DNA of 64,000 nucleotides. Source: an uncultured delta proteobacterium. Its GTDB lineage: Bacteria; Desulfobacterota; Binatia; UBA9968. Within the stretch, counting starts at the first letter, position 1, and each line of letters starts with the position of its first letter. The notes beneath the pieces are model-generated. The model did not search any database. It was not told the DNA's origin and worked only from the letters and a program-made list of their open reading frames with translations. The DNA is taken from positions 1 through 64,000 of the forward strand of contig CAWDPO010000043.1 of the NCBI GenBank assembly GCA_963804165.1, read 5' to 3'. The position numbers were made by a program, and so were the translations under genes. This document shows positions 1,288 through 22,935 of this stretch, in pieces.

Positions 1288-1686
1288 CTAGATGCGCAAC
1301 TTGGTGCTCAGCACAGCTATGGGAGGATCGGCAGTAGAAAGGAGTCTTGTTCTTGATGAGAGCAGGAAATTTAAAGCAACCGAAACACTGTGAAGCGGGA
1401 GCACGAAAGCTTGTACGGTCAAAACGTGCACAAATTTTACCGTTGGAGAGGGTAGGTATTGAGAGGATAGAGCCTGACACTGATTGTCAGGCTCATGCTT
1501 GTTGCCTTTGTTGCAGTCGTGAGGCTCGCTCGCCGCGGCTGTTTGTAACGCAATCCGCGCTGGAAGAAATCGCTCCGGACAGACGCTACAAAGCGCATAG
1601 AGCGCTAAGAGCGTTAGCGGAACAACTTTATATCCACAAGTCATGTATCTTCGGCGCAGTCTAAAGCGGCGATTTCTGTGTGTCAA
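1288..1686 (-). CDS. Secreted His/Cys-rich protein ending PP..LRI, putative leader peptide 1 (DUF2946-like architecture)
   Basis: Hydrophobic N-region with CSVC, then HDC..H..C, C-terminus DPPIAVLSTKLRI*. Start could be 1644. Confidence 0.6.
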   Translation of the reverse strand: MTHRNRRFRLRRRYMTCGYKVVPLTLLALYALCSVCPERFLPARIALQTAAASEPHDCNKGNKHEPDNQCQALSSQYLPSPTVKFVHVLTVQAFVLPLHSVSVALNFLLSSRTRLLSTADPPIAVLSTKLRI

Positions 1687-1740
1687 CTCAGCCGATCCCG
1701 ATTACAGGAGAAAGTAATACTCGTTGCAACGTGTTCAGCT

Positions 1741-2091
1741 TTACTTCGCTTCCGCCGCCATTTTCCGATGCGACCCGGCCATATTCATGTTTTCCGCTGC
1801 GGCTTGCTCGTAGACGCGAATCAACCCTTGGCAATGGTTCATCAGATCTTGAGCGTGCTTGCCATAAAGATCCTTTTTCGCCTGATATTGGGCAAGCAAC
1901 TTTTTATGCTCCGCCGCCTTTGCCTGCATTTCTTTAGCGGCGTCTTCATAATGCTTTGCTAAGCTTTCGTGGTCGCTACGGGACTTGGCGCTTTGAACCG
2001 CTTGGGTCATGTCCATCGAGTGGGGGTTAATTGTGCAGGAACCCAATAGACCAAACATTGCTATAAGCGCGAGAGACATTATTGCCTTCAT
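1741..2091 (-). CDS. Helical lipoprotein of unknown function, paralog of 12443-12793
   Basis: Lipobox LLGSC; DHESLAKHYE..EHKK..HCQ; AGGAG RBS. Confidence 0.75.
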   Translation of the reverse strand: MKAIMSLALIAMFGLLGSCTINPHSMDMTQAVQSAKSRSDHESLAKHYEDAAKEMQAKAAEHKKLLAQYQAKKDLYGKHAQDLMNHCQGLIRVYEQAAAENMNMAGSHRKMAAEAK

Positions 2092-2190
2092 GATATTCTC
2101 CTTTATACATATTAAATTGGTTTCGAACCCTAAAACACGACGCTCAGTATTCGTCCACTATGTGCCTCACATGATCACCTGCCTCCTTTC

Positions 2191-2844
2191 TTACGCTTCC
2201 TGTCGCCGCCGCGGCGCCCTTAGCCGCGGCAAAAACGCCGGGGTAGAAAGCATGTAACGTTTATAGTTATCATCGAATTCAGCCAGCACCTCCCTTTCTT
2301 CGTGTTGCGCCAGCCGAACGTACATGAACACCAAAACGGGAAACATAATCAACGTGATCAGCGTCGGCCACTGCAATAGAAAGCCCAACATGATGAGAAT
2401 GAAACCGTCGTACTGTGGATGACGCACGTAAGCATACGGGCCCGTCGTCGCCAGCGTGTGCGTCTTCTGAGCTTCGTAAAGCACTTTCCATGCGGCCGAC
2501 AGAAGAATAAATCCTCCGAAGATCAGAACATTGCTCAGGATGTGAAGGGGATCAAAGTGAGGATTGATCTTCCAGCCGAGCAGCGTGTTCAACAGGTGTC
2601 CCGCGTCGTGTGAAAAAAAATCTACTCCCGGATACTTTCGGACCAGCCAACCGGAGAGCAAATAGATCGTTAGTGGAAAACCATACATTTCGACAAAGAG
2701 AGCGACTATGAACGCAGAGAAGGCGCTAAAGGAGCGCCAATCGCGTTTCGTTCGCGGTTTGGAAAAGCTGAAAGCGAAAATGATGAAAATCGCCGAGTTG
2801 ATAATGACCAGGGACCACAATCCGTAGGCCGGTGCTTCCTCCAT
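2191..2844 (-). CDS. Isoprenylcysteine carboxylmethyltransferase (ICMT/PEMT) family membrane protein
   Basis: AYGLWSLVIINSAIF start; LATTGPYAYVRHPQY motif; C-terminal EE..Y..Y...PAF. Commonly found in copper islands. Confidence 0.85.
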   Translation of the reverse strand: MEEAPAYGLWSLVIINSAIFIIFAFSFSKPRTKRDWRSFSAFSAFIVALFVEMYGFPLTIYLLSGWLVRKYPGVDFFSHDAGHLLNTLLGWKINPHFDPLHILSNVLIFGGFILLSAAWKVLYEAQKTHTLATTGPYAYVRHPQYDGFILIMLGFLLQWPTLITLIMFPVLVFMYVRLAQHEEREVLAEFDDNYKRYMLSTPAFLPRLRAPRRRQEA

Positions 2845-2866
2845 GACGTCATCCTCCGATAAAAAT

Positions 2867-3097
2867 TCAGTTATGGTTCTTATGTTCCGGCTTCTCTGAA
2901 CCGCCGTGATCTCCATGCCCACCGTGAAACAGATGCATGAGCGGACAAAGCAGAAATATGAGATAAGGCAGCGCGCCGAGCAGGTGCGCCCGATGCTCAG
3001 TCCAAAGAAAGAATGCCGCGACAGCGGCGAATCCAAGGAACGCCAAGCCACTCCGCGACTTTAACCAACCGATGAAACCCTTTTCCTCTGTTGCCAT
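2867..3097 (-). CDS. DUF2933 family small membrane protein
   Basis: EHRAHLLGALPYLIFLLCPLMHLFHGGHGDHGG signature. Confidence 0.85.
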   Translation of the reverse strand: MATEEKGFIGWLKSRSGLAFLGFAAVAAFFLWTEHRAHLLGALPYLIFLLCPLMHLFHGGHGDHGGSEKPEHKNHN

Positions 3098-3166
3098 TTT
3101 TCTACCTCCTGTTCTGCGACCGCGTTTTTCAAAAACATTCAGCCCTAATCGCACAAGTCCACACTT

Positions 3167-5367
3167 CTACGCTCCTTTTTGACAAGCTCTGAGCAACATC
3201 ATGGATTTTTCCATCATCGCTAACCTGGACCCCACATCAAAGCGGAACGGCTTTTCCGGTTCGTCTCCTCGTGCAGTGTCTACGAGCACCTCCCACAAAT
3301 TTCCCGGATGCGCGTCCGGGAGCACAAATTGAACTTTTTCCGTGCCGGCATTGAACAGAATCAACAGTGTGTCGTCGGTGATCAGTTCGCCCTTGTCGTT
3401 GAATTCGTCCATGGCTAACCCGCAGAGCCGGTAACCAAAAGCTTCGCGCGTCGTATCACGCCACTCACTATTGCTCATTTCCCCGCCGTCTGGTCGAAAC
3501 CATACGAGATCCTTCATGTTGGCATCGCACAGCGGACGCCCTTGAAAGAATTCGCGTCGGTGCAACTCCGGATGCTGCAGGCGTAATCGGATCAGCTTTC
3601 GGGTGAACTCGAGAAGGCATTGACGTTGTGGGTCGATATCCCAGTCGAACCAGGACAGTTCATTATCCTGACAGTACGGGTTGTTGTTACCTTGTTGCGT
3701 TCGACCAACCTCATCCCCCACGCAAAGCATGGGAACCCCTTCGGACACAAGCAAGGTCGTTAGAAAATTACGTGTCTGGCGTTCGCGCAGGGCCAGAACC
3801 GACGGATCATCCGTGGCGCCCTCCGCACCGCAATTCCAGGACAGATTGTCATCGGTCCCGTCGCGATTTTCCTCTCCGTTGGCTTCATTATGTTTACCGT
3901 TGTAGCTGACCAGATCCGCCAGCGTGAAACCATCGTGACAGGTGACAAAGTTGATACTGGCATAGGGCCGGCGGCCGTCGCTTTGATATAGATCGCTCGA
4001 TCCGGTGAGACGGTACGCGAACTGGGACACCTGACCGCGATCGCTTCTCCAGTACTTTCTTACCGTGTCGCGGTACTTTCCGTTCCATTCAGCCCAGCCC
4101 ACCGGAAAGTTCCCGACTTGATATCCACCTTCACCAAGATCCCAGGGTTCAGCGATGAGCTTCACTTGGGAGATCACGGGGTCCTGATGGATGATATCGA
4201 AAAAAGCTCCTAGCCGATCGACTTCATGAAACCCGCGCACCAGAGCCGCGGCAAGATCGAAACGAAAACCATCCACGTGCATCTCGATCACCCAGTAGCG
4301 AAGACTATCCATAATGAGTTGTAACGTGCGCGGATGAATCATGTTGAGCGTATTCCCGCAGCCCGTGTAGTCGACGTAATACCGTGAGTCGGAAGTGAGC
4401 CGATAGTACGCGATGTTATCGACACCGCGAAAACAGAGCGTCGGCCCTAAATGGCTCCCCTCAGCGGTATGGTTGTAAACCACATCAAGGATCACCTCGA
4501 TCCCAGCCCCATGCAGCGCCTTGACCATCTGCTTGAACTCCGTAACCTGCTGGCCAAGCGTCCCGCTGCTCGAATAGCGCGAGTCTGGAGCAAAAAATCC
4601 GATGGAGTTGTAGCCCCAATAGTTTGTCAGCCCGCGCTGCACCAAGTGTCGTTCCGGAACAGAGTGATGGACAGGCATGAGCTCAACCGCGGTGATTCCA
4701 ATCGACCTCAAATAGTCGAGCACAGCGGGAAACATCAACCCCGCAAAGGTTCCTCTAAGCTTTTCGGGTACTGCGGGATGGCGAGCGGTTAAGCCTTTGA
4801 CGTGCGCTTCATAAATAACGGTTTTGTGCCAGGGTGTTCGAGGTGGAGCATCTCCTTCCCAATCGAAGCGCGGATCAATGACAATGCTTTTAGGCATGAA
4901 CGGCGCGCTGTCTCTGCCATCCTTCGATAAATCTGCATCCGGATGCCCACCCTGTAACCATACAGAGCATCGTCCCACTGGATCGTCCCCGATATCGATT
5001 TTCCATAGGGGTCCAAGATGAGCTTGGCAGGATTGAAGCGGTGTCCCTTCTTCGGTTCGTAGGGCCCGTCGACTCGGTACCCATAAAGCTGCCCGTGTTT
5101 TAGGCCGGGTATATATACATGCCACACCAGATCGGTTCTCTCCTCGACGGGAATCCGGGCAATTTGGCGGCGCGTATCCTGATCGTCGAAGAGGCAGAGT
5201 TCCACTGCGCTGGCATGCTCGCTGAAAAACGCAAAGTTAACTCCGTTCCCATCCCAAGTTGCTCCCAATGGATAGGGCTGGCCGCGCCACGCGCGAAAGG
5301 AAAGGTTCTTCACCGCTGAGCCGGCCGCCTCTGGGATCGTCATGTACATTCGGTTCCAACCGCCCAT
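3167..5367 (-). CDS. glgX: Glycogen debranching enzyme GlgX (GH13), one frameshift near 4945
   Basis: [12 protein letters not shown] in the 4789-5367 ORF; [24 protein letters not shown] and LIAEPWD in the 3167-5125 ORF. The frames join at a G-run (GYRVG/HPDAD). Confidence 0.92.
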
Positions 5368-5498
5368 CCATTCTTTCTAGTTCGTCTTACTTCTTCCGAA
5401 CGTCGGGCCGGCTTAACCAGAACACCCGGCCGAGTACCATCGCCGTACCTAGCAAGCTAGACTTGCTTACCGACTCGCCGACCTTATTTTTACCTGCC

Positions 5499-6755
5499 TC
5501 AAAAACCCAGAACTTCCTTGATCAATTTCAATTCATCCCGAATGAGTCGGGGCAGTAAAAAATATGTGCGGACCTTTTCTTGCCCCGCTTTGCCAAACGC
5601 CTTTCTCTCTCCAGCATCCTCTAGAAGCTTCAATACTTGTTTGGCACAGCTTTCAACGTCCTGAACCAGATAATCTTGATACGCTTCAGGAAACTGCATG
5701 GGAATACCACCCGCACGTCCGGCGACAACCGGCTTTCCTTTCCACAGCGCTTCCGACACGACCAATCCAAATCCTTCTTTAAGCGACTTCTGAAGAATCA
5801 CGTCGGCACCTCTTTGAAAGGCGTTTACTTCCATATTTCCTACGCCGGTGAGATTCGTGAACACGTACATGTCTGTGTCTTTTGCTGATTCCGCATTAAT
5901 CGTTTCGAGCATCCGCCAGCCCTCGGGATCATCTCCCGCCATGGCGCCGACCAGCGCGAGTTGAACCTCCGGCCGCTTTTCTTTCACTAACCGATAGGCC
6001 TGGATTACTCCTAACGGGTCCTTCCAGGGATCAAAGCGGGAAACTTGAAGAAGCAGAGGACGATTAAGATCGACGCCGGAATTGGCGACCGCTCTTTTGC
6101 AAAGCTCCTCCGGAAGATCCATGTTTTTGGTGCTAAGAGGGTCGATCGCTGGTGGAATGAACACGGCATATGCGGCTTCGAGGTCCGGCGGACAAAACTC
6201 TTTCATAGTAAAAACGACCGCATCGTATTCTTCGATGAAAGGCTTCAAGAAGCTCCACACGTGACGGTTAGGCTCGGCGCTATCGATATGGCAGCGCCAG
6301 ATCCAGCGCGCGTTGTTTGCTCTGACGAAGTGTTTCAACGCTGCCGGCTGTGGGTCGTGGACAATATAAACGTCGTAAGCCCCTTCAACCATCTCCCCAC
6401 AGGCTCGATTGCGATCGAGGTAGGTTTGCCTGATCGTCTCTGTTAGATCCAGATCTGCGCCTTGCAGGGCGTTGTGAAAAGCCTTGGTCACTTCGAAAAA
6501 AGGCGGGTCACCGTGGATCAATCTCCAATCCGCATTAACTCCCATGGCCTGTAGAATAGGAATCTCTCCACCGAGAAGCTCAGCGACTCCCCCGCCCGCA
6601 GCGGTGGTGTTGATGTGGCAAATGCGAACACCTCTTAGCGAGCGAGCCAATTGCTGCATCTCATCGATCAGCGCATCACCAACCAGAGGCCGGTAATTGT
6701 CCGGATTGGTCGACTGCGCGCAGCAATGGCGCCCGACAACTACTTGGGGAAGCAT
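5499..6755 (-). CDS. treT: Trehalose synthase TreT-like glycosyltransferase (GT4)
   Basis: GGGVAE, HNALQG, VHDPQP, WRCHID, QVSRFDPWKDP and EGFGLVVSEALWK motifs. Confidence 0.85.
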   Translation of the reverse strand: MLPQVVVGRHCCAQSTNPDNYRPLVGDALIDEMQQLARSLRGVRICHINTTAAGGGVAELLGGEIPILQAMGVNADWRLIHGDPPFFEVTKAFHNALQGADLDLTETIRQTYLDRNRACGEMVEGAYDVYIVHDPQPAALKHFVRANNARWIWRCHIDSAEPNRHVWSFLKPFIEEYDAVVFTMKEFCPPDLEAAYAVFIPPAIDPLSTKNMDLPEELCKRAVANSGVDLNRPLLLQVSRFDPWKDPLGVIQAYRLVKEKRPEVQLALVGAMAGDDPEGWRMLETINAESAKDTDMYVFTNLTGVGNMEVNAFQRGADVILQKSLKEGFGLVVSEALWKGKPVVAGRAGGIPMQFPEAYQDYLVQDVESCAKQVLKLLEDAGERKAFGKAGQEKVRTYFLLPRLIRDELKLIKEVLGF

Positions 6756-6888
6756 GAAATCACCTTCTGCATGGACACGGCCTTCTTTCACGCTAACGTG
6801 GTGTTACTGACATCCGATCTCCCTTCAAGCCGTAATAACTTCGGTCCAGTACCGTTGCGGCAACGCATTTCCAAGAAATGCTTGCTAT

Positions 6889-7035
6889 TTAGTTTTGGGC
6901 GTACTTCTCCGGCTCTTTTTCGAACCTCGCCTTACAACTATTGGAACAGAAGTAATACGTCTTGCCTTTATGGGCAGCCGTCCCCGCTGCCGTCTTCTCA
7001 TCGACGTTCATCCCGCAAACCGGATCCTTTGCCAT
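6889..7035 (-). CDS. YHS domain protein (48 aa)
   Basis: Translated by hand: MAKDPVCGMNVDEKTAAGTAAHKGKTYYFCSNSCKARFEKEPEKYAQN*; GGAGG upstream. Confidence 0.9.
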   Translation of the reverse strand: MAKDPVCGMNVDEKTAAGTAAHKGKTYYFCSNSCKARFEKEPEKYAQN

Positions 7036-7103
7036 TTTCGTCCCCTCCGTTTTTGCACATCGTCATTTCAAACTCGGGCGAGAGGTTTAACGAATGTCCG
7101 CCG

Positions 7104-7427
7104 TTACGACGTTAAGTCTCTTTTCCTAGCCTCGAACTCTTCCTTGTTGATTTCTCCGCGTGCGTAACGCTGGCGCAAAATTTCAAGCGCCGAGTCCGCT
7201 CGACTTTCGCGCCCCTGGCCGAGCAGCCAGCGAATCGCAAGGACGATCCCGACAATGATAAGGCCCCAAAACAACAACATCATGAACATCATGCCGAGCC
7301 CCCAAACTCCCCACCACATCGGATGCATTTCCCAGCGCCACTCGTACATGCGCTCCTGGGCCAGGAGGACGGCCGGCTTGCCCAACACGAGCAAACTCGG
7401 CAACCAAGTTTCATAAAACATGATCAA
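7104..7427 (-). CDS. SHOCT-domain membrane protein
   Basis: Trp/Met/Gly-rich TM followed by ALEILRQRYARGEINKEEFE. Confidence 0.85.
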   Translation of the reverse strand: MIMFYETWLPSLLVLGKPAVLLAQERMYEWRWEMHPMWWGVWGLGMMFMMLLFWGLIIVGIVLAIRWLLGQGRESRADSALEILRQRYARGEINKEEFEARKRDLTS

Positions 7428-7440
7428 TCTCCTCTAAGCC

Positions 7441-7878
7441 CTAATTCGCTTTTTTCGCGCCCCTATTCATCCGCTCGGACATCTGCTTCATCATGCCGGA
7501 CATGTCACCCATCATCTTTGACATGTTCCCCATCTCTTCAGATGTCATCTTCCCGCTTCCCATCATCTCGCCCATATTCCCCATCATGCCCGACATGTCG
7601 CCCATCATACCGCCCATGCCTTTCATATCTTCGCTCTTCATCATCCCCTGCCCCTTCATCATCCCACCCATACCCTTTTTCATCTCCATCATTTTGCCGT
7701 GCATCTCCTTCATCTTACTCATGTCCATGCCGCCACCCTGCATCCCCTCCCCCTTCATGGGCATGTCTTTTTTCATCGGCATGCCTTCCTTCGCCGGCAT
7801 CTCCTTTTTCTCTTGAGCCATCAGGGGGAACACGCCGATAGCTCCGGACAATACGATTGCGGTAACTAACTTTTTCAT
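7441..7878 (-). CDS. Secreted extremely Met-rich protein (putative Cu(I)/Ag(I) binder)
   Basis: Signal peptide MKKLVTAIVL..LMA, then dense MxxM/MM repeats. Confidence 0.7.
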   Translation of the reverse strand: MKKLVTAIVLSGAIGVFPLMAQEKKEMPAKEGMPMKKDMPMKGEGMQGGGMDMSKMKEMHGKMMEMKKGMGGMMKGQGMMKSEDMKGMGGMMGDMSGMMGNMGEMMGSGKMTSEEMGNMSKMMGDMSGMMKQMSERMNRGAKKAN

Positions 7879-7912
7879 AACGATCTCCCTTCTTTTATTA
7901 AGTTGTTGATTC

Positions 7913-8170
7913 TCACTTGCCAATGCTCAGACTCGCATTGTGCATCCAGGCGATATACCACCCCGCGATTAGCGCAAAAACTCCAAGTAACACTGCACCC
8001 CATACCATGCTCAGCGGATTTCCCCAGGCAAACCACGGAAGAAGTTCAAACAGCGAGTCATGTAATTCTCTTGCTTTTCCAACAAGCAACGATCCGTAAG
8101 CGAGACACATCACGTAGAATGTTTCTATGCCCAACACACAAAGACCGGCATATTTTCTTTTAGACAACAT
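7913..8170 (-). CDS. Small two-TM membrane protein (DUF5676-like)
   Basis: YVMC..LH..FELLPWFAW..HN pattern. Confidence 0.6.
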   Translation of the reverse strand: MLSKRKYAGLCVLGIETFYVMCLAYGSLLVGKARELHDSLFELLPWFAWGNPLSMVWGAVLLGVFALIAGWYIAWMHNASLSIGK

Positions 8171-8226
8171 GATCCGTAACCTCCTGTCCTAAATGCTCCG
8201 ACAGCACCGAGCAGCTGTTTTCCCGA

Positions 8227-8631
8227 TTACCTATACCAACGAAACGTCCGCTCTTTTTCGCCGGCAACATCTTTGATGACGAGCTCCAGCCATTTTCGCC
8301 GCGTGGACGGTCGAGGGAACGTCAAAATAGCTTCCCGGTGATGGCCGCTGCCCTTGTTTTCGATGCCCGTCGGCTGCAGCAACATGCCGGTGTCATCACG
8401 GAGAATGCTGTTAGCCTTGAGGTCGTAAACGTCCAAATCCACAGAGTGAGTATCCAGGGCCACTAAGAAACGGGATTCATGTTCTGTCTGCGCCAGGTAC
8501 GTCACCTTCACGGTGACACCGCCTGCTGAAACCGTCTGCGTCGCATCGGTGGCTGCGGCACCGAAACTTTCCCCACCTCTTAGAAAACCACCTAAGATCA
8601 GCCCCATTATCAAGATTTTCAGTGTCCTCAT
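8227..8631 (-). CDS. Secreted hypothetical protein with THSVDL and GHHR motifs
   Basis: Signal peptide; His-containing motifs; metal-island context. Confidence 0.6.
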   Translation of the reverse strand: MRTLKILIMGLILGGFLRGGESFGAAATDATQTVSAGGVTVKVTYLAQTEHESRFLVALDTHSVDLDVYDLKANSILRDDTGMLLQPTGIENKGSGHHREAILTFPRPSTRRKWLELVIKDVAGEKERTFRWYR

Positions 8632-8742
8632 CTTCTTTCTCCCTTCGTCGGCCACTGCCCTGTTTAACGATCCCCGAACCCAACCACCAGACTATTTCAC
8701 TCCCAGAAACCAACGATGCCGAAAGATTCGATAGCAGTGATC

Positions 8743-11440: not shown

Positions 11441-11556
11441 GATATTTCTCCTATTCCTTTTCACATGACTCTAAGAGTGTGCGCACTTGTGCCGCACGAT
11501 TTCGATTCCCTTGCTCGGCAAGAACAGAGATCGACTCGACAGAGATAGGAGAGGTA

Positions 11557-11945
11557 CTAGATGCGCAGAACCGAGGACAACTGGAGATTGACTACTTTGG
11601 CGGGAGAGAACCCATTACCTGGTGGTCGAAAAGCATTCAACCTCGCGATCAAAAGCGGTACTTCTTCACCAATCGCGATGTCCAGATGCAAAGTTTTGGC
11701 ACCAAGAATTGTGCCGATGGAAAAAGCCTGCAGGGAAACCACCTGTTTATGTAAGACCTTACAGAGTTCTTCATCCGTGTGATGATCTGGAGTTTCTAAG
11801 GGGACGCTCGCATGCGCGAAACTTTGCACAACAGACGAATCTAAATGCTTGCCGTCTGTATGGGAACACGACACTAGAACACTTAGATACGCTAGGGTGG
11901 CTATAATTGCGATGCTGATCGCATAACGCGTCCGGTAGCGCCCAT
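11557..11945 (-). CDS. Secreted His-rich protein ending RPP..SVLRI, putative leader peptide 2
   Basis: Hydrophobic N-region, CSH..H..H..HH..C..H, FRPP, C-terminus LQLSSVLRI*. Start uncertain: the ATG at 11945 is one base out of frame next to a G-run. Confidence 0.6.
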
Positions 11946-12442
11946 GCGCGCAATTACGGAAGCCCAGGCAGTCCGCCCTATGTTGTGACCAAACCGCCAC
12001 TGAACGTTCCCTCCATAATTTGAGCAGAACGCAAAGGAGAGACCACAAAGAGCTTCTATTCTCTGGCGCTGACTATTGGGCGTTGATCGTCTCTGCCCCA
12101 TTGATAACTGGAGGATAATTAAAGCCTAACCAAACGGCGGGGACACGCATTACGTGATTGAAATGTCCTTATCCCTTTTCATTCGCGCGAATTGCTTAAG
12201 ATCTTTTCTCATTTCTGCAAAAGAAAACTAGCGCTTTCGGAGTCTGACTAGCCGGATTTTCGCGAGTAACTGGGTTCCTATCATGCCGGATAATCTTCCG
12301 CACGCTCACGACCGAGTCGGGTCGTATCCTTCGGGTTTCGTATTTCTTCGAGAAGTTCTTTGAGTACGCTGCGCGTGTTCCTGAGTTTTTCGCAAACCCA
12401 GGGTGCACTCTTGCGGCCACGTGTTCCAGGTTCACTCTAGCA

Positions 12443-12793
12443 TTACTTTGCTTCGGCTGCCATTTCACGATGAGATTGAGCCATGGCGGTGTTCTCCTTT
12501 GACGCCTGTTCGTAGATGCGCACCAATCCTTGGCAATGGCTTATCAGACTTTGAGCTTGTTTGCCGTAAAGACTTTTTCTCGCCTCGTATTGGGCGAGTA
12601 GTTTTTTGTGTTCGTCCGCCTTTGTCTGCATTTCTTTGGCTGCACCTTCATAATGATTTGCCAATAACTCATGATCGCTACGGGTTTTCGCACTCTGAAC
12701 AGCCTGGGTCATATCCATGGGCATCGGGTTGATTGTGCAGGAAACCAATAGACCGAAGACAGCCACAATTGTGAGATATTTTATTGTTTTCAT
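12443..12793 (-). CDS. Helical lipoprotein, paralog of 1741-2091
   Basis: Lipobox LLVSC; same length and most residues shared (MDMTQAVQSAK.RSDHE.LA.HYE). Confidence 0.75.
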   Translation of the reverse strand: MKTIKYLTIVAVFGLLVSCTINPMPMDMTQAVQSAKTRSDHELLANHYEGAAKEMQTKADEHKKLLAQYEARKSLYGKQAQSLISHCQGLVRIYEQASKENTAMAQSHREMAAEAK

Positions 12794-12795
12794 AG

Positions 12796-15922: not shown

Positions 15923-16447
15923 CTAAGGGAAGATCGTCAGATTCCGATGATGGAAAAAGAAATAGCCAGCCATTCCAGCCGCGGCCAGCAGATTTCCCGC
16001 GAGAACCGCGGGCCATGCTAAAAGACCCAAAATGGGCTCGGCCAATAGGAATGCCATACCGACGAAGGCGAACTCAAAAAACACGAACAAAAGTAGAACC
16101 GCGAACCCGAAATTGGCGTCGCTCTCGGCATAATGTAAAAGCCAAGATACGACACCCCCGACACCTACAAAAACCAGTAGATGAACCCACGTGTACATAA
16201 GGGTCATCTCCACCGAAACAGCAATGGTATTGAGCTCCCAAGCCGCGTGATTGGAACGAAACAGGGCGAAGCCCAAAAGGGTAGGCGTGTAGAGGGGTTG
16301 ATTCTTGAGAGTATCGAGGATCAGAAACCAGACTGCGAGAATTCCCGCTCCAATCACTCCGGCGATAATGCCTTCAATATATATGGCGCTGGTGTTTTCT
16401 TGCACTATGTTTGATCGAACTACTTGAATCCGATTTTCTTCTAGCAT
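15923..16447 (-). CDS. Four-TM hypothetical membrane protein
   Basis: EGIIAG..WFL..D...QPLYTPTLLG; YTWVH; GNLLAA. Confidence 0.6.
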   Translation of the reverse strand: MLEENRIQVVRSNIVQENTSAIYIEGIIAGVIGAGILAVWFLILDTLKNQPLYTPTLLGFALFRSNHAAWELNTIAVSVEMTLMYTWVHLLVFVGVGGVVSWLLHYAESDANFGFAVLLLFVFFEFAFVGMAFLLAEPILGLLAWPAVLAGNLLAAAGMAGYFFFHHRNLTIFP

Positions 16448-16672
16448 TGGTGTTCCTCCAACGACTGAAATGCTTACCAGACGTAAGCGTTGCTTTCTGT
16501 CTCGCTCGCTTCTGACCATATCGTTTCCCCGAAGCTGACTCGCCTGAGTTTAATGACCCGAACCGGAATAACCGTCCTCTTTCTTTGCAGGCGAGGAACC
16601 ATTACCCGACTGTACCGTGAGGTTATCATCATGATCGTTGCCAACGCCCCACCAGTGACGTTGTTCTGTCAC

Positions 16673-18138
16673 TCATGATAGATCATGATAGCAACCGGCA
16701 GGGTGTTCATCATGCTCGTTAGTACCCGCTGCAACAGTAACCTTGATCCCGTCACGGGCTAGATCCGCGTCGCTCGCCTTCAGCGCAACGGTCCCGGCAG
16801 GATGTTTGTACCAGCCGGGATCTTCATCGTAGCTGCGAAGTTGATCCCGCACCTTAACCACCGTAAAGAGTCCGCCCATCGAGATATAATCACCGAACTG
16901 CCCGGTGGCGCCCTTCATGGCGATCGTGTTTTTCGGATAAGGCATGACCTCGGCCATTCTGCCCATATCCATGCCCGTGTGACCCATCGACATATAGGCC
17001 GGCAGGAGCGGCCGAACTTGCTCTTCCACGCCCTCGATTTTCGTCCCGACCATATTTGGGAACTGATGGCCCATCTGATTCATCACGTGGTGAGTCATGT
17101 GGCAGTGAAAGGCCCAGTCGCCCGGCGCGTCGGTAATCAATTCGATGTTGCGTGTCTGTCCGACCGCAACCAGAGCCGTGGTTTCCGGCCACTGCGCCGA
17201 GAGAGGGATATCCTCCCCGTCGGTTGCGGTGATTCGGAAATGATATCCATGGATGTGCATCGGATGATGATCCATCGCGCCCAGGTTACCTAGGCGAAGG
17301 CGGACTTTATTTCCGGTCTTGCAAACTAAAGACGCGGTAGAGGGAAAAACTTTTCCATTGATGGTGAGAATATTGAAGTCGTTCATCACCAACGTATTCG
17401 GACGGGCGGTTCCAGCTTCGATCGCCCATTCGCTGATCATGAGTGAAAAGTCGCGATCGACGTGATATTCGGTGGACGGATTCCTAGGATGAACGACAAA
17501 CATGCCGATCAGTCCCATGCCCATCTGTGTCATCTCGTCGTGATGGGCATGGAACATGAAGCTTCCGTACTGTCTGAGTGTCCATTCGTACTTTACCGTC
17601 TCGCCGGCTTTGATATATGGCTGGGTCAAACCGCCCACCCCGTCCATCCCGTTGGGGAGATAGAAACCATGCCAATGGACCGAGGTCGATACCGGCAACT
17701 TGTTGGTCACGTAAATTCGAATACGCTCGCCTTCGACAGCTTCGATGACCGTGCTATTCACCCGGCCGTTGTAGCCCCAACATTTAGCGCGCAACCCCGA
17801 GTCAAAGGCGTGATCGACTTCCTCGGCGATGAGATGAAAGACCTTGACGCCGTCAACCACTTTAAAGGGAAGCGCGCCCCCGTTTGGAACCACGACGGGT
17901 TTATAACCCTTGCCGGGTAAAACCGCTGGCAACGCTTTGACGTCGATCGGCCCGCCGCTGTAACTCTTCTCCCAATAGGCCCGGTTAGCGGACTTCGGTT
18001 GTCCCGCTGACGGTTGATACTGCGATGAGCCCCCCCGTGAGTTTTCGCCTGCCCCTCTTTTCCCAACAGCGCGACGCCGCCGGCGATCGTCGCAGCGCCG
18101 AGACCCAAAATTTCCCGCCTGGATATTTTCTTGGCCAT
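16673..18138 (-). CDS. Tat-exported two-domain multicopper oxidase, frameshift near 17940
   Basis: SRREILG Tat motif in the upstream frame; HWHG, FHAHH, HPMHIHG, HCHMTHHVMNQM. A T1 Cys is present only in domain 2. Confidence 0.88.
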
Positions 18139-18154
18139 TTTCACTCCTTAGAAA

Positions 18155-19588
18155 TTAATGCCCTTCTATATTACGCCCTTGTGTGCGAGCGCCCCTCATT
18201 GCTGCAGCTGCCTCGCCCGCTCGCGCACCGTCGCCTCCCGGCAATCGGCCGCTCAAGAGCTGTGCTAGCTCCGCCCGAGCCAACCAATAGTCACGCAGCG
18301 CCGCGACATAGGCAGCGCCGGTCTCGATCTGCTGCTCGCGCGCGCGCAGCAATTGAATGGGTCCAAGTTGCATCGCGTTGTATTGCAACTGCGCTTCGTT
18401 AACGATGCGCTCATGAAGCGGGAGCATGATGTCCCGATAGTATAAAGCGTGATCCCGCGCTCCCTCCATGCGATCACGGACGGCCCGTGACATGGAACGG
18501 ATTCGAATCGCCAGAGAGTAATATTCCTGCTGCGCACGCCTGAGCTCTGCGGCGGCACGGCCGGTGCGTGCCTGTCCCTGATCAAACAGCGGAATGGGAA
18601 ACTCCAAAACCGGCCCGACTTCCCACTCTCCATCGGTCCGCTCTCCCAACGCGCCCATGTGCGATTCGGGAATCAGAGCTGTTGCTCTGTTCAGTCCTAG
18701 CTGCTCACCCGCAGACACTAGACGTTGCCGGGCGTTCAAAAGATCCACACTGCGGCTGAGCGCGACACGTTCGATATCCTCCGTCTGGATTGGCTGCTGC
18801 GGTATTTCGGGTAATCGTTCGTCGGTTTGCCACTCGGTCTGTTTTCCCCACAGGCCCATTAAAGTGTTTAGCTCTTCCCGGCTCTGCCGGACCGCGACCT
18901 CGGCGGACCTGAGCGCCAATTTACCGGTCTCCAGAAGCGCCCTCTCCCGAGCAAATTCGAGGTCCGTGATATTTCCCGCGTCAAGGAGCCGTCGCGTGAC
19001 CTCAAACGACACGGTGAGCGCCTGGACTATCGTCTGGCGGAGATCGAGCATTTGCTCATTTGCCTGATGCAATAAAAAGGCGGCTCGAACTCGTGCCGCA
19101 AAGTCCAAGACCATCCCGCTTACCCGAGTTTTCGCCTCCTCGAAGCGGGCGGCCGCCACTCGCTTGCGTAGCGGCAAATAAATGATATCGAGAAAATTCA
19201 TAACCACGGCGAGTTCCAGTTCCGGCTTGCCTCCGCCGGATGTCGGCCACTTTACGGCCCCGTCGAAGATCGGATTGCTGAGCAGGCCGGCTTGCACCAG
19301 GTCTGCCTGTGCAACACCAAGATCCGAATAAACCGCCTGCAGCTCGCGATTGTTGAGCAAGGCGATCTGGACGGCATCATCGACGGTTAGCTTGTCTTTA
19401 AGTAGCGAACCTAACTTCTCCGCGGCTTCTTTATCCAGATCAGTGCCGTTATTCCAATAAATTTTAATCGCGGCGCGCTCTTCCACCGTAGCTTGCACTT
19501 GATCGAAGCCAGCGTTGAGGGCGACCGAAGCGCAGCCGTTAAGAAAAACAATAGAAAGCAGCCATCCTGTATTTCGTACCGACAACAT
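18155..19588 (-). CDS. TolC-family outer-membrane lipoprotein associated with the copper oxidase
   Basis: Lipobox LNGC; LTVDDAVQIALLNNRELQA; QAGLLSNP; PIPLFDQGQ. Confidence 0.88.
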   Translation of the reverse strand: MLSVRNTGWLLSIVFLNGCASVALNAGFDQVQATVEERAAIKIYWNNGTDLDKEAAEKLGSLLKDKLTVDDAVQIALLNNRELQAVYSDLGVAQADLVQAGLLSNPIFDGAVKWPTSGGGKPELELAVVMNFLDIIYLPLRKRVAAARFEEAKTRVSGMVLDFAARVRAAFLLHQANEQMLDLRQTIVQALTVSFEVTRRLLDAGNITDLEFARERALLETGKLALRSAEVAVRQSREELNTLMGLWGKQTEWQTDERLPEIPQQPIQTEDIERVALSRSVDLLNARQRLVSAGEQLGLNRATALIPESHMGALGERTDGEWEVGPVLEFPIPLFDQGQARTGRAAAELRRAQQEYYSLAIRIRSMSRAVRDRMEGARDHALYYRDIMLPLHERIVNEAQLQYNAMQLGPIQLLRAREQQIETGAAYVAALRDYWLARAELAQLLSGRLPGGDGARAGEAAAAMRGARTQGRNIEGH

Positions 19589-19611
19589 TCGCGCTGACCT
19601 CCTTCACCCAG

Positions 19612-20352
19612 CTATTTCATTTTTTCGATCTTGACGATGGCTTTTTTCGGAACGTCGATGGTAAAGCGGACCTTGTCGCCGAATTTCAGTCCTTCCAAAA
19701 GCGACGGCGGATCCACCCGATAGCCCATCGTCATCGCTTCCATGAAACCTTTGATCTCCCCATGCTCGACCACGATCTGGCTCGCACCGGGCACGGTCGC
19801 AACGACTTTTCCTTCTCCCACGACAGTCTTTTGCGGGCCCGCCTCTGCTGCAGGTCCCTGCGCTTGTTGCGGGCTCGTCGTCGCCGCCAACATTGCCCCT
19901 TTTTCGATCTTCACGATCGCTTTCTTCGGAACATCGATGGTGAAGCGAACCTTGTCGCCCGATTTCAGTCCTTCGAGCAGAGAAGGCGGCTCGACGCGAT
20001 AGCCCATCGTCATCGCATCCATGAACCCCTTGATCTCTTCGTGATCGACAACGATCTGACTGGCGTTGGGTACCGTTGCGACGACTTTTCCCTCTCCCAC
20101 CACAGTCTGCGTTCCGCTTTGTGCTGTTTGCTTAGCCTCTTCACCTTGAGGCGCTGCCACAGACAGAACAGGTTGTGTCGAAGGGATATCCGCTCGGCTG
20201 TACGCGAGTGTCTTAGAAACCGTCCGGACCGGACCGGCCGTTGCCTCAGGATTTGCCGGATGGTTCATGCTCAACGGTTGCAATTCGTAGGCAGCGCACC
20301 CCGTAAGAGCCAACACAAGAAAACCCAATGTGTTTTTGTGTGCGAATGTCAT
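19612..20352 (-). CDS. Lipoprotein with two tandem CusF-type copper-binding domains
   Basis: Lipobox LTGC; two copies of H.EIKGFM.AMTMGY..LK.GDKVRF. Confidence 0.82.
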   Translation of the reverse strand: MTFAHKNTLGFLVLALTGCAAYELQPLSMNHPANPEATAGPVRTVSKTLAYSRADIPSTQPVLSVAAPQGEEAKQTAQSGTQTVVGEGKVVATVPNASQIVVDHEEIKGFMDAMTMGYRVEPPSLLEGLKSGDKVRFTIDVPKKAIVKIEKGAMLAATTSPQQAQGPAAEAGPQKTVVGEGKVVATVPGASQIVVEHGEIKGFMEAMTMGYRVDPPSLLEGLKFGDKVRFTIDVPKKAIVKIEKMK

Positions 20353-20373
20353 ATCGGAGGTCCTTTCGCTCGA

Positions 20374-21093
20374 TCAGTTTTTTAGCTTCTCGATTTTCGT
20401 GATGGCGCGTTTGTTAGTATCGATCGTGAACCGAACTTTGTCTCCGGCTTTAACCGTCTTGAGCATCGAGGATGGATTGACCTTGTAGCCCATCGTCATC
20501 GCATCCATGAAACCCTTGATCTCTCCATGCTCGATAACGACTTCCTGGGTTTGCGGAACCACCGCCAGAATTGTTCCCTCTCCCATCACGGTACTCGGTA
20601 CATCTTTGGGTCTGAGAACGGCCAGATAGGTGGACACATCGATTAGCTCTTGAACGGTCATGCGCTCATTGTAGTCCGGCATCATCGACTTACCGTCGGG
20701 ACCTCGATGCTTCTTTGCCGCCAAAGCACTCGGATTGATCACCGACTCGGTGAAATACTCCAACGGATGCAAAGGGCCCATCTGGCTGAGCTCCGGACCC
20801 GATTTGCTACCGGGAGGGAATTGCTCGCCCCTCACCTCGTGACAGACGAAGCACGCATATTTCTCGAAGACCGCCCGGCCCTTCTCAGAATCACCTTTGG
20901 GCATGGTGAACTGCCAGCCCTTTGGGTGGTGCATCTCAGGCGCTTGGGCGCTTTTCTCGGCGGCGCCAATGGCCAGCGCCGACGTTATAGTGACAATGAG
21001 CGTGATGAGGAACCATGCTTGTTTGTTTTGCATAATCGATAATCTTTTGTCGGCTCGCCGAGTTTGTGACATCAAAACTTGTTTCCTCCACAT
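20374..21093 (-). CDS. Monoheme cytochrome c fused to a CusF domain (copy 1)
   Basis: CFVCH, GPELSQMG, SMMPDY, then EHGEIKGFMDAMTMGY. Start uncertain (21033-21093). Confidence 0.8.
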   Translation of the reverse strand: MWRKQVLMSQTRRADKRLSIMQNKQAWFLITLIVTITSALAIGAAEKSAQAPEMHHPKGWQFTMPKGDSEKGRAVFEKYACFVCHEVRGEQFPPGSKSGPELSQMGPLHPLEYFTESVINPSALAAKKHRGPDGKSMMPDYNERMTVQELIDVSTYLAVLRPKDVPSTVMGEGTILAVVPQTQEVVIEHGEIKGFMDAMTMGYKVNPSSMLKTVKAGDKVRFTIDTNKRAITKIEKLKN

Positions 21094-21273
21094 TTGTGCG
21101 CAAACTTGACCCCGTCCGGTACGTCAAGTTCTTAAATCCATTCGCCCTATCGAAATGATCAATTCAGGGGGGCAGTGAATTACCCGCTAACACTGAGATC
21201 ACTCCAAAAAAGCGATCGAGTCCGTCGCCCGATAAACGATCAGGGAAGGACCCAGATAAGGATGAGAGAGGAG

Positions 21274-21681
21274 CTAAATCTGCAGAACTGAAAACAGGAG
21301 ATAGCGACCGGCGTCGCCGGCTTGGGAGAAAGCGAGAATAGGTCTAAAAACAGCGTCCAACCAACGGCCATTACCCAATCTCGGCTGCGCCGGCTCGTAA
21401 AACCAAGTCGCGTGATTTGTTGCGACCCTCTGCGCGTCTTTCAAATGGGCTGAACCGCTTTGCGCTGCCGGACCGATGCGCAGCTCGGCTGTCGGACAGT
21501 GAATAACCGGCGAGAAGGATTCATGCGAATCGCTTAGAATGGTCAAGTCGTGTGGATGGGAATTGGATTCCTCCAACGAATGCTCATGGCCATCGTCATG
21601 GCTTAGACATCGCCCCAAAGCCCACGCGACGCCCCCGTAAATAAGCACGACTGAAAACAGAATTACCGCGAGTCGCTTCAT
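21274..21681 (-). CDS. Secreted His-rich protein ending SVLQI, putative leader peptide 3
   Basis: Signal peptide, CLSHDDGHEH..HPH..H..IHC, C-terminus RYLLFSVLQI*. Confidence 0.65.
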   Translation of the reverse strand: MKRLAVILFSVVLIYGGVAWALGRCLSHDDGHEHSLEESNSHPHDLTILSDSHESFSPVIHCPTAELRIGPAAQSGSAHLKDAQRVATNHATWFYEPAQPRLGNGRWLDAVFRPILAFSQAGDAGRYLLFSVLQI

Positions 21682-21777
21682 AGCCGTAGATGTTTTCTAG
21701 CGTTGCTATCTCGGTATTTCAAGAGATCTCCCGAGTGCTACCAAAAGTCAAAAGCATTAAAGCATCATGCGCTTTCA

Positions 21778-22452
21778 TCAATTTTTCAATTTTTCAATTT
21801 TCGTGATCGCGCGTTTATCCGTATCGATAGTGAAACGAATTTTTTCTCCCGCTTTGACAGTTTTGAGGAGAGACGTCGGATTCACTTTGTATCCCATCGT
21901 CATGGCATCCATAAAGCCCTTGATCTCTTCGTGATCGACAACGATCTCCTGGGTCTCGGGAACCAAAGCAATGACTTTACCGACGCCGCTGACGCTTTTG
22001 GCCACACCTTTGGGTCTGAGCGCCGACAGATAGGCTGATAAATCAACCAGCTCCTGAACCGTCATATCGGCGTTAAATGACGGCATCTTGGACCTACCGT
22101 CCGGACCGCGGTATTTTTTTGCGCCGACGGCATCCGGGTTTATCGTCGACTCTGTAAAGTATTCCAGCGGATGCATGGGACCCATCTGGCTCAATTCCGG
22201 TCCGACTGCTTGGTTCTTGTCCAGTGGCGGGAATTTTTCTCCGCGGATTTCATGACATGAATAACAACTGAATTTGTCATAGACGGCACGACCTTTTACC
22301 GGATCGCCTTTGGGCATCGTGAATTGCCAACCCTTGGGGTGATGCATTTCAGCCTCACCCGCCCGAGCTGGGCCAACCCGTTGCGTCGCTCCGACAAGCA
22401 AAAACGCCGACGAAACGACAAAGAAACAGAACTTGTTCAGTTCCATACACAC
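21778..22452 (-). CDS. Monoheme cytochrome c fused to a CusF domain (copy 2)
   Basis: CYSCH, GPELSQMG, KMPSF, then DHEEIKGFMDAMTMGY; likely ATG at 22446. Confidence 0.8.
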   Translation of the reverse strand: MCMELNKFCFFVVSSAFLLVGATQRVGPARAGEAEMHHPKGWQFTMPKGDPVKGRAVYDKFSCYSCHEIRGEKFPPLDKNQAVGPELSQMGPMHPLEYFTESTINPDAVGAKKYRGPDGRSKMPSFNADMTVQELVDLSAYLSALRPKGVAKSVSGVGKVIALVPETQEIVVDHEEIKGFMDAMTMGYKVNPTSLLKTVKAGEKIRFTIDTDKRAITKIEKLKN

Positions 22453-22530
22453 ACTCCTTGCAAAAATGACGAAGATTATCGGTCAAAAGACGCTGTCCCG
22501 AGGAAGACAGCGGAGCGTGGTTTGGACGGA

Positions 22531-22935
22531 TTAAATTCTTAAAACGGACAGAACAAGATAAACCGGGTCGTGGAATTGAGGCGATGTCGACGCAAGCAGA
22601 AATCCCTTTGGCGGAGCGGCGCTTTGCTCGATGAGCGCATGAGCAGACGAATCAAGCCATGCAAAGTACAAAAGTTTTGCAGCGTGCCGTTTCGATAAAG
22701 TCTCCGGGCTGGATTGAACCATGGGGCCGAATTGCAGGTGCCGATCGGCACAATGGATGCTTCCCGGCTCGTCATGTTCCGCGTTAGACTGATTGGCCGA
22801 TTCGCCGATGGGAAGCTTATGCATCGCTTCATGCGCGCCGCCAACAGGCTCAAAACAATCTGACAATGCATGCGCAATGCCCGCCTGCAAAAAAAAGCTC
22901 ATCACAACGATGGCAATCAAGTGTTTCACAAACAC
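22531..22935 (-). CDS. Secreted His/Cys protein ending PP..SVLRI, putative leader peptide 4
   Basis: Signal peptide, DC..H..H..H..IHC..H, AAPP, C-terminus PVYLVLSVLRI*. Confidence 0.65.
   Translation of the reverse strand: MFVKHLIAIVVMSFFLQAGIAHALSDCFEPVGGAHEAMHKLPIGESANQSNAEHDEPGSIHCADRHLQFGPMVQSSPETLSKRHAAKLLYFAWLDSSAHALIEQSAAPPKGFLLASTSPQFHDPVYLVLSVLRI

Follow-up and report, generated by a model that had tools for sequence, protein, structure and literature searches.

What are the four small open reading frames (ORFs) with similar endings that lie within 22 kb of one another in the DNA of an uncultured delta proteobacterium (Desulfobacterota; Binatia; UBA9968)? They occur in a 64,000-nt stretch (assembly GCA_963804165.1, contig CAWDPO010000043.1, positions 1 to 64,000), which was analyzed as a whole and is referred to as the window. 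A preliminary description of the window had taken the four, denoted here as ORF1 to ORF4, for a candidate family of metal-sensing leader peptides, whose translation would control the gene downstream. Our analysis shows that ORF3 and ORF4 belong to a real, unannotated protein family, whereas ORF1 and ORF2 are look-alikes of the same design. We give roughly an even chance to the reading that this family consists of cis-acting, co-translationally exported metal-sensing leader peptides, in which the occupancy of the ribosome close to the stop codon controls transcriptional read-through.

All four ORFs were found where they had been placed, on the minus strand and with the C-termini claimed for them (Table 1). 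ORF1 ends in ...LSTKLRI, ORF2 in ...LSSVLRI, ORF3 in ...FSVLQI, and ORF4 in ...LSVLRI, and the respective stop codons and next bases are TAG-A, TAG-T, TAG-C, and TAA-T. A plus-strand reading was rejected, as its translations were riddled with stops and the open frames are those of the minus strand. The bounds given for ORF2 (11557-11945) had to be corrected, since they contain a non-integral number of codons and no ATG, GTG, or TTG is found there; the start candidates are GTG 12000, with GGAGG 9 nt upstream, and the alternative TTG 12048.

ORF4 is composed of a signal peptide, Cys27, a His-rich stretch, IHC at residues 60-62, APPK, and the end ...VYLVLSVLRI. The build of ORF3 is a signal peptide, Cys25, a His-rich stretch, IHC, and the end ...RYLLFSVLQI; it lacks the proline pair (PP) and is of the 'WLDAVFR' subgroup. 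ORF2 has Cys80 and an RPPG 20 residues before its C-terminal end, and ORF1 has an HDC motif and a DPP 10 residues before its end. The numbers of residues after the motif Cys are 74, 67, 73, and 72 in ORF1 to ORF4, and the His counts are 4, 9, 9, and 10. The earlier statement that a PP is usually present held for ORF1, ORF2, and ORF4, where it is followed by 10, 20, and 25 residues, and failed for ORF3. That the four have little mutual similarity was borne out: a phmmer search against all 48,513 ORFs of the genome linked only ORF3 and ORF4 (E 0.05). The pattern [STA][VKI][LF][RQK]I-stop is found in seven of these 48,513 ORFs (>=50 amino acids (aa); 7.5-Mb genome), and the window ORFs account for four of the seven, all within 22 kb. 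Because the pattern is so rare in the genome and yet concentrated here, the shared LRI-type ending is not a matter of chance.

No match to any of the four window ORFs was found in Pfam or NCBIfam at E <= 1. A single-sequence homologue search with ORF4 returned one match (88% identity), as the family evolves faster than a word index can follow. When the genus was searched with a first alignment, 17 of 31 genomes yielded full-length matches (16 of 30 if the unpublished G005 is left out), with the build MKRxxxIxxCLSxLYAGAVWAxxGC, a His-rich stretch, K(I/V)HCPN, a variable stretch, GPPG, ~10 residues, and (R)HLLLSV(I/L)R(I/V)-stop. A 15-sequence profile matched 202 of 1.84 billion protein cluster representatives at E <= 0.001, 70 of them at E <= 1e-10 and eight at E <= 1e-30, nearly all from end to end and mostly with lengths of 125-140 aa. 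The 46 indexed relatives are called 'hypothetical protein' or are unnamed and carry no precomputed Pfam domain; one is labelled 'Candidatus Binatia bacterium' by NCBI.

It should be noted that the profiles that seemed to detect all four window ORFs contained them as rows, and those E-values were discarded. When the profile was rebuilt without the window rows, only ORF3 and ORF4 were detected, and nothing else among the 48,513 ORFs fell below E 0.4. With all filters off, this unbiased profile gave E 0.9 for ORF2 and E 150 for ORF1, which are thus not statistically detectable members. The proposed family of four is therefore reduced to ORF3 and ORF4, which by their profile scores are members of a real unannotated family. 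Since the unbiased profile misses ORF1 and ORF2, we classed them as look-alikes by design, judged by their hydrophobic N-terminus, Cys spacing, PP, LRI-stop, and place ahead of a gene for an exported protein; the two are probably paralogues that have diverged a great deal. An orthologue of ORF1 in another genome (E 2e-22) ends in GPPIASFKPNLRI-stop and precedes TolC-like and HlyD-like genes, so LRI-stop appears to be the part kept in that lineage.

Across the order, 49 of 123 genomes contained matches (46 of 120 without the unpublished genomes G005, G482, and G485, all three of which match). Matches occurred in 48 of 89 genomes of the window's own bacterial family and in 0 of 5 and 0 of 28 genomes of two other families of the order. 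An evenly drawn set of 400 further genomes from the phylum, with 10 candidates scored per genome, gave no match to the family profile. The peptide family thus appears to be lineage-restricted, having been found only in one non-proteobacterial bacterial family. Several genomes carry two to three copies a few kb apart on one contig, clustered in metal islands as in the window. Broken members were also seen (L011 in G003:C32 and L013 in G018:C19), with an in-frame TAG or TGA or split into two ORFs, which fits rapid turnover of the family genes.

The most conserved element of the family is its tail, with the consensus (H/Y)L(L/F)(L/F)SV(L/F)(R/Q)I-stop. Tail and spacing counts refer to the 150 representatives among the matches listed (of 202). 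An SVLRI-like terminal pentapeptide was present in 143 of these, most often as SVLRI (57), SVFRI (16), SVLQI (11), or SVIRI (6). In a 114-row alignment the mean column identity was 21%, and C25, H63, C64, S130, and I134 were at least 90% conserved. Of 143 full-length representatives, 139 have the His-Cys (HC) motif. Its Cys is followed by 62 to 77 residues, with peaks at 66-68 (65 proteins) and 73-74 (43 proteins), and 36-40 residues (Cys to Cys) separated the first Cys from the HC Cys in 105 of 136 proteins. A PP lies 17-20 residues from the C-terminal end in 72 of 143 members, most often as HGPP (27 of 72), then by decreasing frequency HDPP, DGPP, LGPP, NGPP, and RGPP; 55 of 143 have no PP within the last 35 residues. 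The two spacings follow this division: the PP subgroup has 65-68 residues after the HC Cys, and the PP-less subgroup ('LWLEAVFKR...' type, including ORF3) has 73-74. Between the HC Cys and xGPP, 43-46 residues intervene in 61 of the 71 members with both motifs.

The N-terminus is hydrophobic with an AxA-like signal peptide site. An AlphaFold2 model based on 114 sequences had a predicted local distance difference test score (pLDDT) of 65.7 and a predicted template modelling score of 0.32; helix 2-33 alone was confident, and the rest was coil with pLDDT 52-65. The family peptides are accordingly predicted to be exported, unstructured Cys/His peptides. The ratio of non-synonymous to synonymous change (dN/dS) was below 1 throughout, at 0.18 in the signal peptide, 0.27 from the first Cys to HC, 0.41 in the linker, and 0.33 in the tail, indicating that the ORFs are translated and under purifying selection. 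The 29 sequence pairs compared are non-independent, and the synonymous rate (dS) outside the tail is near saturation. At the Arg in position -2 of 39 members, synonymous codons are used (CGN in 33, including CGC 24, CGG 5, and CGT 3; AGA in 6), and the stop codon always directly follows the terminal Ile. Both observations make it clear that selection acts on the tail at the peptide level.

Gene context and RNA features were examined in 58 non-redundant full-length members with DNA. The loci of G005, G482, and G485 were left out, one locus had just 127 nt downstream, and the neighbor of ORF3 was read from the window. The next co-oriented gene encodes a cytochrome c-CusF fusion in 21 of the 58 and a TolC-like outer membrane efflux protein (OEP) in 12, that is, one or the other in 33, which agrees with the earlier expectation that homologues would lie upstream of metal genes. 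Two members are followed by a multihaem cytochrome c, about eight by a small secreted protein without Pfam match ('GGGVTVK' type), two by a small membrane protein and then FtsH, and one each by an M48 peptidase, NfeD, and an enoyl-CoA hydratase fragment; the remainder had no assignment. The usual gene order in the genus is lgt, leader, 75-100 nt, cytochrome c-CusF, CusF lipoprotein, and TolC-like gene, and the intergenic gaps between leader and next gene are mostly 75-130 nt. In the window, the four ORFs are paired with co-oriented exported-protein genes as described, at measured distances of 78-200 nt where 85-200 nt had been claimed.

A further group of features concerns the RNA around the stop codon. 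From -60 to +40, the 58-member average contains 10-23% G and 57-81% pyrimidines, and this pyrimidine-rich, G-poor tract extends about 40 nt into non-coding sequence. A C/G ratio of at least 1.5 over this region was found in 52 of 58 members, compared with 4% of the stop regions of 1,899 long ORFs and 7% of 20,000 random windows; for pyrimidines of at least 65%, the values were 50 of 58 members, 0.3%, and 0.7%, respectively. The tract is present at the stops of ORF2, ORF3, and ORF4 (Table 1), with CTCCTCTCTCATCC immediately 3' of the ORF3 stop, and weakly at that of ORF1. The observed/expected ratio of G given the amino acids was 0.69 over the final 10 codons and 0.80 over codons -20 to -11, compared with 0.88-0.97 in five upstream bins (0.94-0.97 in four of them). 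Codon choice is biased as well: Ser -5 is TCN in 52 of 52 cases and never AGY (37% of the Ser codons in the genome), Leu -8 and -6 are CTY in 80-90% of members, and Val -4 is GTT in 62%, compared with 18% in the genome. Because G falls below expectation and codon choice is biased, the tract does not merely reflect amino-acid composition. Synonymous change is also suppressed, with a dS of 0.54 in the last 22 codons and 0.97-1.41 elsewhere (29 pairs, 45-92% identity).

The stop codons themselves (TAG 32, TAA 18, TGA 8) differ from those of the genome's ORFs of at least 300 aa (28%, 30%, and 41%), and the base after the stop is C in 29 of 58 members, compared with 26%; since the sequences share ancestry, these biases are no more than suggestive. 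Within 110 nt after the stop, 17 of 58 members carry a terminator-like hairpin with a T-run, compared with 123 of 2000 random windows; in eight of the 17 it begins at -2 to +1 from the stop. Nine genus members analyzed with RNAalifold share one conserved 6-pair hairpin directly 3' of the stop, with compensatory changes in three pairs, followed by T-rich sequence. Hairpins also follow ORF1, ORF3, and ORF4 in the window (Table 1); no terminator-like hairpin was found after the stop of ORF2. A gene for Rho is present in this genome. Taken together, the RNA features point to control of transcription termination rather than to unmasking of a downstream Shine-Dalgarno sequence (SD).

Since the anatomy fits the criteria for arrest peptides and mirrors that of the known leaders CutF and CruR, we read the family as cis-acting leaders. 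In this proposal, the signal peptide would bring the nascent chain to the Sec translocon. With the ribosome at the end of the ORF, the last ~30 residues, comprising xGPP if present and the (H/Y)LLLSVLRI tail, would occupy the exit tunnel. The distance of ~67-74 residues from HC to the peptidyl-transferase centre is about enough to span the exit tunnel and the translocon. Placed 65-68 or 73-74 residues before the C-terminus, the invariant HC would just have emerged on the periplasmic side, beside the first Cys and the His-rich stretch. Metal bound there, probably Cu(I), would alter the force on the chain and thereby how long the ribosome stays at the final codons or at the stop codon. The dwelling ribosome would sit midway in a 100-nt C/U-rich, G-poor tract resembling a Rho loading site, and in one clade it would also cover the 5' arm of the stop-abutting hairpin with its U-run. 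Its occupancy would decide read-through into the cytochrome c-CusF, CusF, TolC, or RND genes. The proposal starts from direct observations: a family with a conserved anatomy and fixed spacings, the order of the genes, the base composition of the RNA, the reduced synonymous change, and the covarying hairpin. We infer that the ribosome stalls, that metal is sensed, that Rho takes part, and in which direction the response goes.

Several points weigh against reading the family as cis-acting leaders. The linker dN/dS of 0.41 and the fixed spacing from the first Cys to HC would also be expected of a mature protein with its own function. Some members precede genes for FtsH, M48 peptidase, NfeD, or an enoyl-CoA hydratase fragment, with no evident link to metals. 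A rut site is not provable from composition, part of the C/U richness comes from Leu, Ser, Phe, and Pro codons, and a terminator-like site is present in no more than 17 of 58 members. Two of the four ORFs that raised the question, ORF1 and ORF2, are not detectable members. In addition, a full-text literature search for an LSVLRI-type tail returned no relevant paper, and we know of no published arrest motif that resembles LSVLRI-stop.

The main rival, which we consider doubtful, is a trans-acting small periplasmic protein: a cleaved, disordered His/Cys peptide that serves as a metal sponge, chaperone, or efflux regulator (like SilE, PcoE, and CzcI), with the tail docking onto a partner (for example CusF, TolC, or a sensor). 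Two conserved Cys and many His behind an AxA-type signal peptide site would suit such a protein, as would the purifying selection over the whole ORF, linker included, and the fixation of both inter-motif lengths; CzcI-type proteins upstream of czcCBA, which have no proline motif, have also been described as possibly acting differently (PMC9973294). However, no confident fold was obtained despite the 114-sequence alignment, and the linker is poorly conserved, yet the very last residue and the place of the stop codon are nearly invariant. A trans-acting peptide also leaves unexplained why synonymous change is suppressed and G avoided, why a 100-nt C/U tract runs past the stop, why a hairpin abuts the stop, why stop-codon use is biased, and why the gene always lies directly upstream of its neighbor. 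The same RNA-level constraints around the stop are left unexplained if ...(L/F)(R/Q)I-COOH is a tag recognized by a PDZ protease of the periplasm (DegS, Prc, or CtpA kind), so that a tail exposed by metal triggers proteolytic signalling or turnover, a role that we regard as quite improbable. The PDZ recognition classes include a hydrophobic-x-hydrophobic C-terminal type, and the motif of the family does stand strictly at the free C-terminus. Protease genes (FtsH, M48) lie behind a few members, and at L009 and L015 (unpublished genome) the second co-oriented downstream ORF, after cytochrome c-CusF, has by eye a candidate N-terminus of an extracytoplasmic function (ECF) sigma factor. However, no PDZ protease gene is a conserved neighbor in the 58 loci, and the conservation covers 9-10 residues and, further back, xGPP, which goes beyond the usual needs of a PDZ ligand.

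We give equally little weight to direct translational control of the SecM/CutF kind, in which a stalled ribosome melts a stem-loop that hides the downstream SD. This mechanism has been shown for CutF (PMC9973294), and in the minimum-energy fold of the window the CCTCTCCTATC just after the ORF2 stop pairs with the GGAG region of the next gene. Among 50 members with a recognizable SD and start, a ribosome at the stop opened the SD by more than 0.15 in six, compared with two for a control footprint placed 45 nt upstream. The mean unpaired probability of the region from the SD to the start was 0.347 in the free RNA, 0.375 with the ribosome at the stop, and 0.368 with the control footprint, and the intergenic gaps of mostly 75-130 nt also argue against it. 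SD unmasking is therefore not generally supported across the family. The interpretation offered in the preliminary description is partly supported: the design, metal-gene context, and conserved LRI-stop are retained, the membership of ORF1 and ORF2 is given up, and a read-out through the SD of the SecM/CutF type finds no general support.

The surroundings of the four ORFs in the window form a copper-resistance island, with two cytochrome c-CusF genes, a double-CusF lipoprotein gene, two TolC-like genes, and a multicopper oxidase gene (Table 1). Of two paralogous lipoprotein-like genes, one precedes ORF1 and the other ORF2, and the pair of lipoprotein and leader look-alike therefore seems to be duplicated in the window. 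An insertion sequence (IS)-type transposase ORF separates the second lipoprotein gene from the remainder of the island, a position that fits with a mosaic island. Two further secreted proteins were observed. One has no leader before it, and its relatives of the 'GGGVTVK' type directly follow about eight of the 58 family members in other genomes. The other resembles a periplasmic Cu(I)/Ag(I)-binding protein and adjoins a gene for a SHOCT-domain membrane protein, and in another genome a Met-rich gene of this sort lies behind one family member. Three genes in the window are seemingly split into two overlapping frames and are either frameshifted pseudogenes or the result of assembly indel errors. 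Outside the window, a subgroup ending in ...YLS(L/F)SILRI (L056 at 17589-18020 on the plus strand, L057, and L050) stands before a small membrane protein (MLRKNWKI...) and then FtsH; this leader type may serve membrane quality-control genes too.

Table 1 Positions of the ORFs, neighboring genes, and RNA features in the window.
Feature	Position	Strand	Remarks
ORF1	1288-1644 from ATG 1644 (118 aa), or to TTG 1686 (132 aa)	minus	Classed as divergent look-alike
ORF2	11557-12000 from GTG 12000 (147 aa), or to TTG 12048 (163 aa)	minus	Classed as divergent look-alike
ORF3	21274-21681 (135 aa)	minus	Family member by the profile lacking window rows, E 2.8e-30
ORF4	22531-22935 (134 aa)	minus	Family member by the profile lacking window rows, E 2.6e-18
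C/U-rich tract at ORF2 stop	11520-11619	minus	C/G 1.50, pyrimidines 65%
C/U-rich tract at ORF3 stop	21237-21336	minus	C/G 1.89, pyrimidines 70%
C/U-rich tract at ORF4 stop	22494-22593	minus	C/G 1.83, G 18%, pyrimidines 63%
Strong hairpin, 10 pairs and TTTTT	1204-1233	minus	-15.6 kcal/mol; between ORF1 and TolC-like gene; absent from the consensus scan list
Weaker hairpin with T-run	21205-21233	minus	-7.6 kcal/mol; 40 nt after ORF3 stop
Hairpin, 9 pairs and TCTTTTG	22484-22512	minus	-12.3 kcal/mol; 18 nt after ORF4 stop, before cytochrome c-CusF
TolC-like outer membrane efflux gene	2-1087, running off the window	minus	OEP 4.2e-38; 200 nt after ORF1
Small signal-peptide protein, 91-99 aa	11165-11464	minus	No Pfam match; next after ORF2; likely start ATG 11440 with GGAG before it (gap 116 nt, or 92 nt to GTG)
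Second cytochrome c-CusF fusion gene	20374-21093	minus	Next after ORF3, 180 nt
Cytochrome c-CusF fusion gene	21778-22452	minus	Signal peptide, HHPKGWQFTMPKGD; CusF_Ec 5.3e-13, Cytochrom_C 7.5e-8; 78-84 nt after ORF4
Double-CusF lipoprotein	19612-20352	minus	Behind second cytochrome c-CusF gene
Second TolC-like gene	18155-19588	minus	Behind double-CusF lipoprotein gene
Multicopper oxidase	16673-18144	minus	Behind second TolC-like gene; seemingly split, with the twin-arginine (Tat) signal (17758-18144) in another frame than the enzyme (16673-17932)
Lipoprotein-like gene, 116 aa (MK..LLGSCTINP...)	1741-2091	minus	No Pfam match; 54 nt upstream of ORF1
Lipoprotein-like gene, 116 aa, paralogue	12443-12793	minus	No Pfam match; about 390-440 nt upstream of ORF2
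IS-type transposase ORF, 269 aa	12812-13621	minus	
142-aa secreted protein	8227-8655	minus	...SAGGVTVKVTYL...GHHREA...; no Pfam match
160-aa signal-peptide protein	7441-7923	minus	Mostly Met/Gly/Lys repeats (MMGDMSGMM...); no Pfam match
SHOCT-domain membrane protein	7104-7427	minus	
GlgX-like debranching enzyme	3167-5367	minus	Seemingly split
CoA-disulfide-reductase-like gene	23282-24900	minus	Seemingly split

How does the proposed leader family compare with known systems? In TnaC of Escherichia coli, a ribosome held at the leader's stop masks the adjacent Rho loading site, which leads to read-through into the operon. The read-out proposed for the family would similarly take place near the stop codon and over a Rho-loading-like tract. 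As in a TnaC-type arrangement, a C-rich, G-poor tract, judged by composition, lies at and after the stop and Rho is present. However, TnaC is a cytoplasmic peptide of 24 residues that responds to free tryptophan within the ribosome, with no export signal and no metal site. If the family works as proposed, it would be a second way of coupling metal sensing in the periplasm to gene expression, here by controlling termination at the stop codon of the leader itself.

Among secreted leaders, Fujiwara et al. (2024) selected small unannotated upstream ORFs with a localisation signal at the N-terminus, a conserved C-terminus, and a spacer exceeding 30 aa (PMC10987492). The family shows all four features, with a spacer of about 100 aa and with metal genes downstream instead of sec or yidC. 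At the family level, this upholds the shared design described earlier for the four ORFs, that is, an export signal, a His/Cys site, a variable linker, and a conserved extreme C-terminus. The peptides of that study, like those of the family, are encoded by small upstream ORFs, secreted, and conserved in their extreme C-terminus at the stop, where the family would arrest the ribosome as well. Secreted leaders described there stall with the stop codon in the A site, including a non-proline DGMK-stop, and HGPP and RGPP are listed as RAPP-like arrest motifs (PMC10987492). However, the peptides described in that source monitor secretion, precede secA or secDF, and have motifs unrelated to LSVLRI, and their arrest was demonstrated experimentally, whereas the present family is known from its sequences. 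If the tail arrests ribosomes, ...LSVLRI-stop would be a new non-proline termination-arrest motif, and the PP-containing and PP-less versions offer a natural comparison that could separate the roles of polyproline stalling and of the tail.

CutF of Rhodobacter capsulatus is a closer parallel. CutF-like proteins are described as shorter than 150 aa and as carrying a Sec signal together with a Cys/His site and a C-terminal PP; most often they precede OEP, CusA, CusB, or CusF genes (PMC9973294). The family shares with CutF the length of less than 150 aa, the Sec signal peptide, the periplasm-exposed Cys/His site, a C-terminal stalling element, which is putative here, and a co-oriented OEP or CusF-type gene downstream (PMC9973294; bioRxiv 10.1101/2025.02.05.636593). 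Periplasmic copper sensing during co-translational export has been proposed for CutF, and the same is proposed here. However, CutF-like lists, as described, require a PP in the last 15 residues, which most family members lack, and the CxxxC of CutF is absent from the family. The read-out of CutF, the melting of an SD-shielding stem-loop, is unsupported in the family as well. The main-text descriptions of CutF-like proteins make no mention of the ...LSVLRI tail, the supplementary cluster logos (Figs S5, S6, File S1) aside (PMC9973294).

CruR (Bp2923) of Bordetella pertussis, the prototype of DUF2946 (PF11162), has a CXXC, 45 residues (give or take 1-2), and RAPP, and the ribosome stalled on it governs Rho-dependent termination within an intergenic region of 162 nt (PMC9426467). 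Like CruR, the family members are small upstream ORFs with an export signal that head metal-homeostasis genes (PMC9426467), have a Cys site ~45 residues before xxPP (43-46 in 61 of 71 in the PP subgroup), and are followed by a long intergenic region, with a termination read-out through the stalled ribosome proposed for the family. The differences are no less marked: the family has no conserved CXXC column, its site is a single HC with a Cys ~37 residues upstream, and its proline motif is of the HGPP type and lies 17-20 residues from the end, in place of the RAPP described 3 from the end in CruR, with half of the members having none. The nearly invariant ...LSVLRI-stop tail is an extra element. 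Moreover, the family heads efflux and detoxification genes, so we would expect a response of the opposite sign to that of CruR.

Profile comparisons gave the same mixed picture. The PF11162 model (gathering score 23.7 bits) matched none of the four window ORFs at E <= 1, had no match over its cut-off in this genome, and had four over it in 251 genomes of the phylum. None of the 150 representatives reached the cut-off; five gave sub-threshold matches (best 20.0 bits, E 0.0012), in alignments that end at the PP. An hhalign comparison of the 114-row family alignment with three canonical RAPP-ending proteins of the phylum, a weak partner with its three rows, since a homologue search from one canonical RAPP protein had returned just two matches, gave a probability of 4.5% and aligned the signal peptide only. 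Matches in a protein atlas (scores 0.93-0.94), taken as leads, pointed to small secreted families of unknown function, with DUF6769 in 20 and DUF2946 in two of 30. By Pfam score, CXXC/CxxxC, and terminal PP, the family would not be assigned to DUF2946. The preliminary description had called the system analogous to DUF2946 with a different motif; the ending is indeed different, and the relationship is perhaps not one of mere analogy, given the 43-46 spacing and the five sub-threshold matches. As the Cys-PP spacing of ~45 residues is kept, the PP subgroup may be a very distant DUF2946 relative with an added tail of 18-19 residues.

Such a descent would allow the family to act as an 'inverter' on a CruR-type sensor, a version of the leader model that we think unlikely. 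The ancestral arrest module (Cys, 45 residues, xGPP) would have been retained and a tail of 18-19 codons added, whose mRNA is the Rho loading site. A stall at HGPP would leave the tract bare, so that Rho terminates and the efflux genes are off. Metal-dependent release would let the ribosome translate over the tract, and a second arrest at ...LSVLRI-stop would mask the tract and the stop-abutting hairpin and switch the efflux genes on, with the PP-less subgroup relying on the LSVLRI motif alone. If this is true, the inverter would convert a copper-repressed switch for uptake genes into a copper-induced one for efflux genes.

With or without such an inverter, the family that we read as cis-acting leaders has neither annotation nor a Pfam model and marks copper and efflux islands in an uncultured lineage, where a model would improve annotation. 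Judged by sequence, the family itself appears to be new, the kind of leader to which it would belong, the metal-sensing leaders represented by CutF and CruR, is already known, and its LSVLRI-stop and termination read-out are a candidate arrest motif and a candidate mechanism within that kind.

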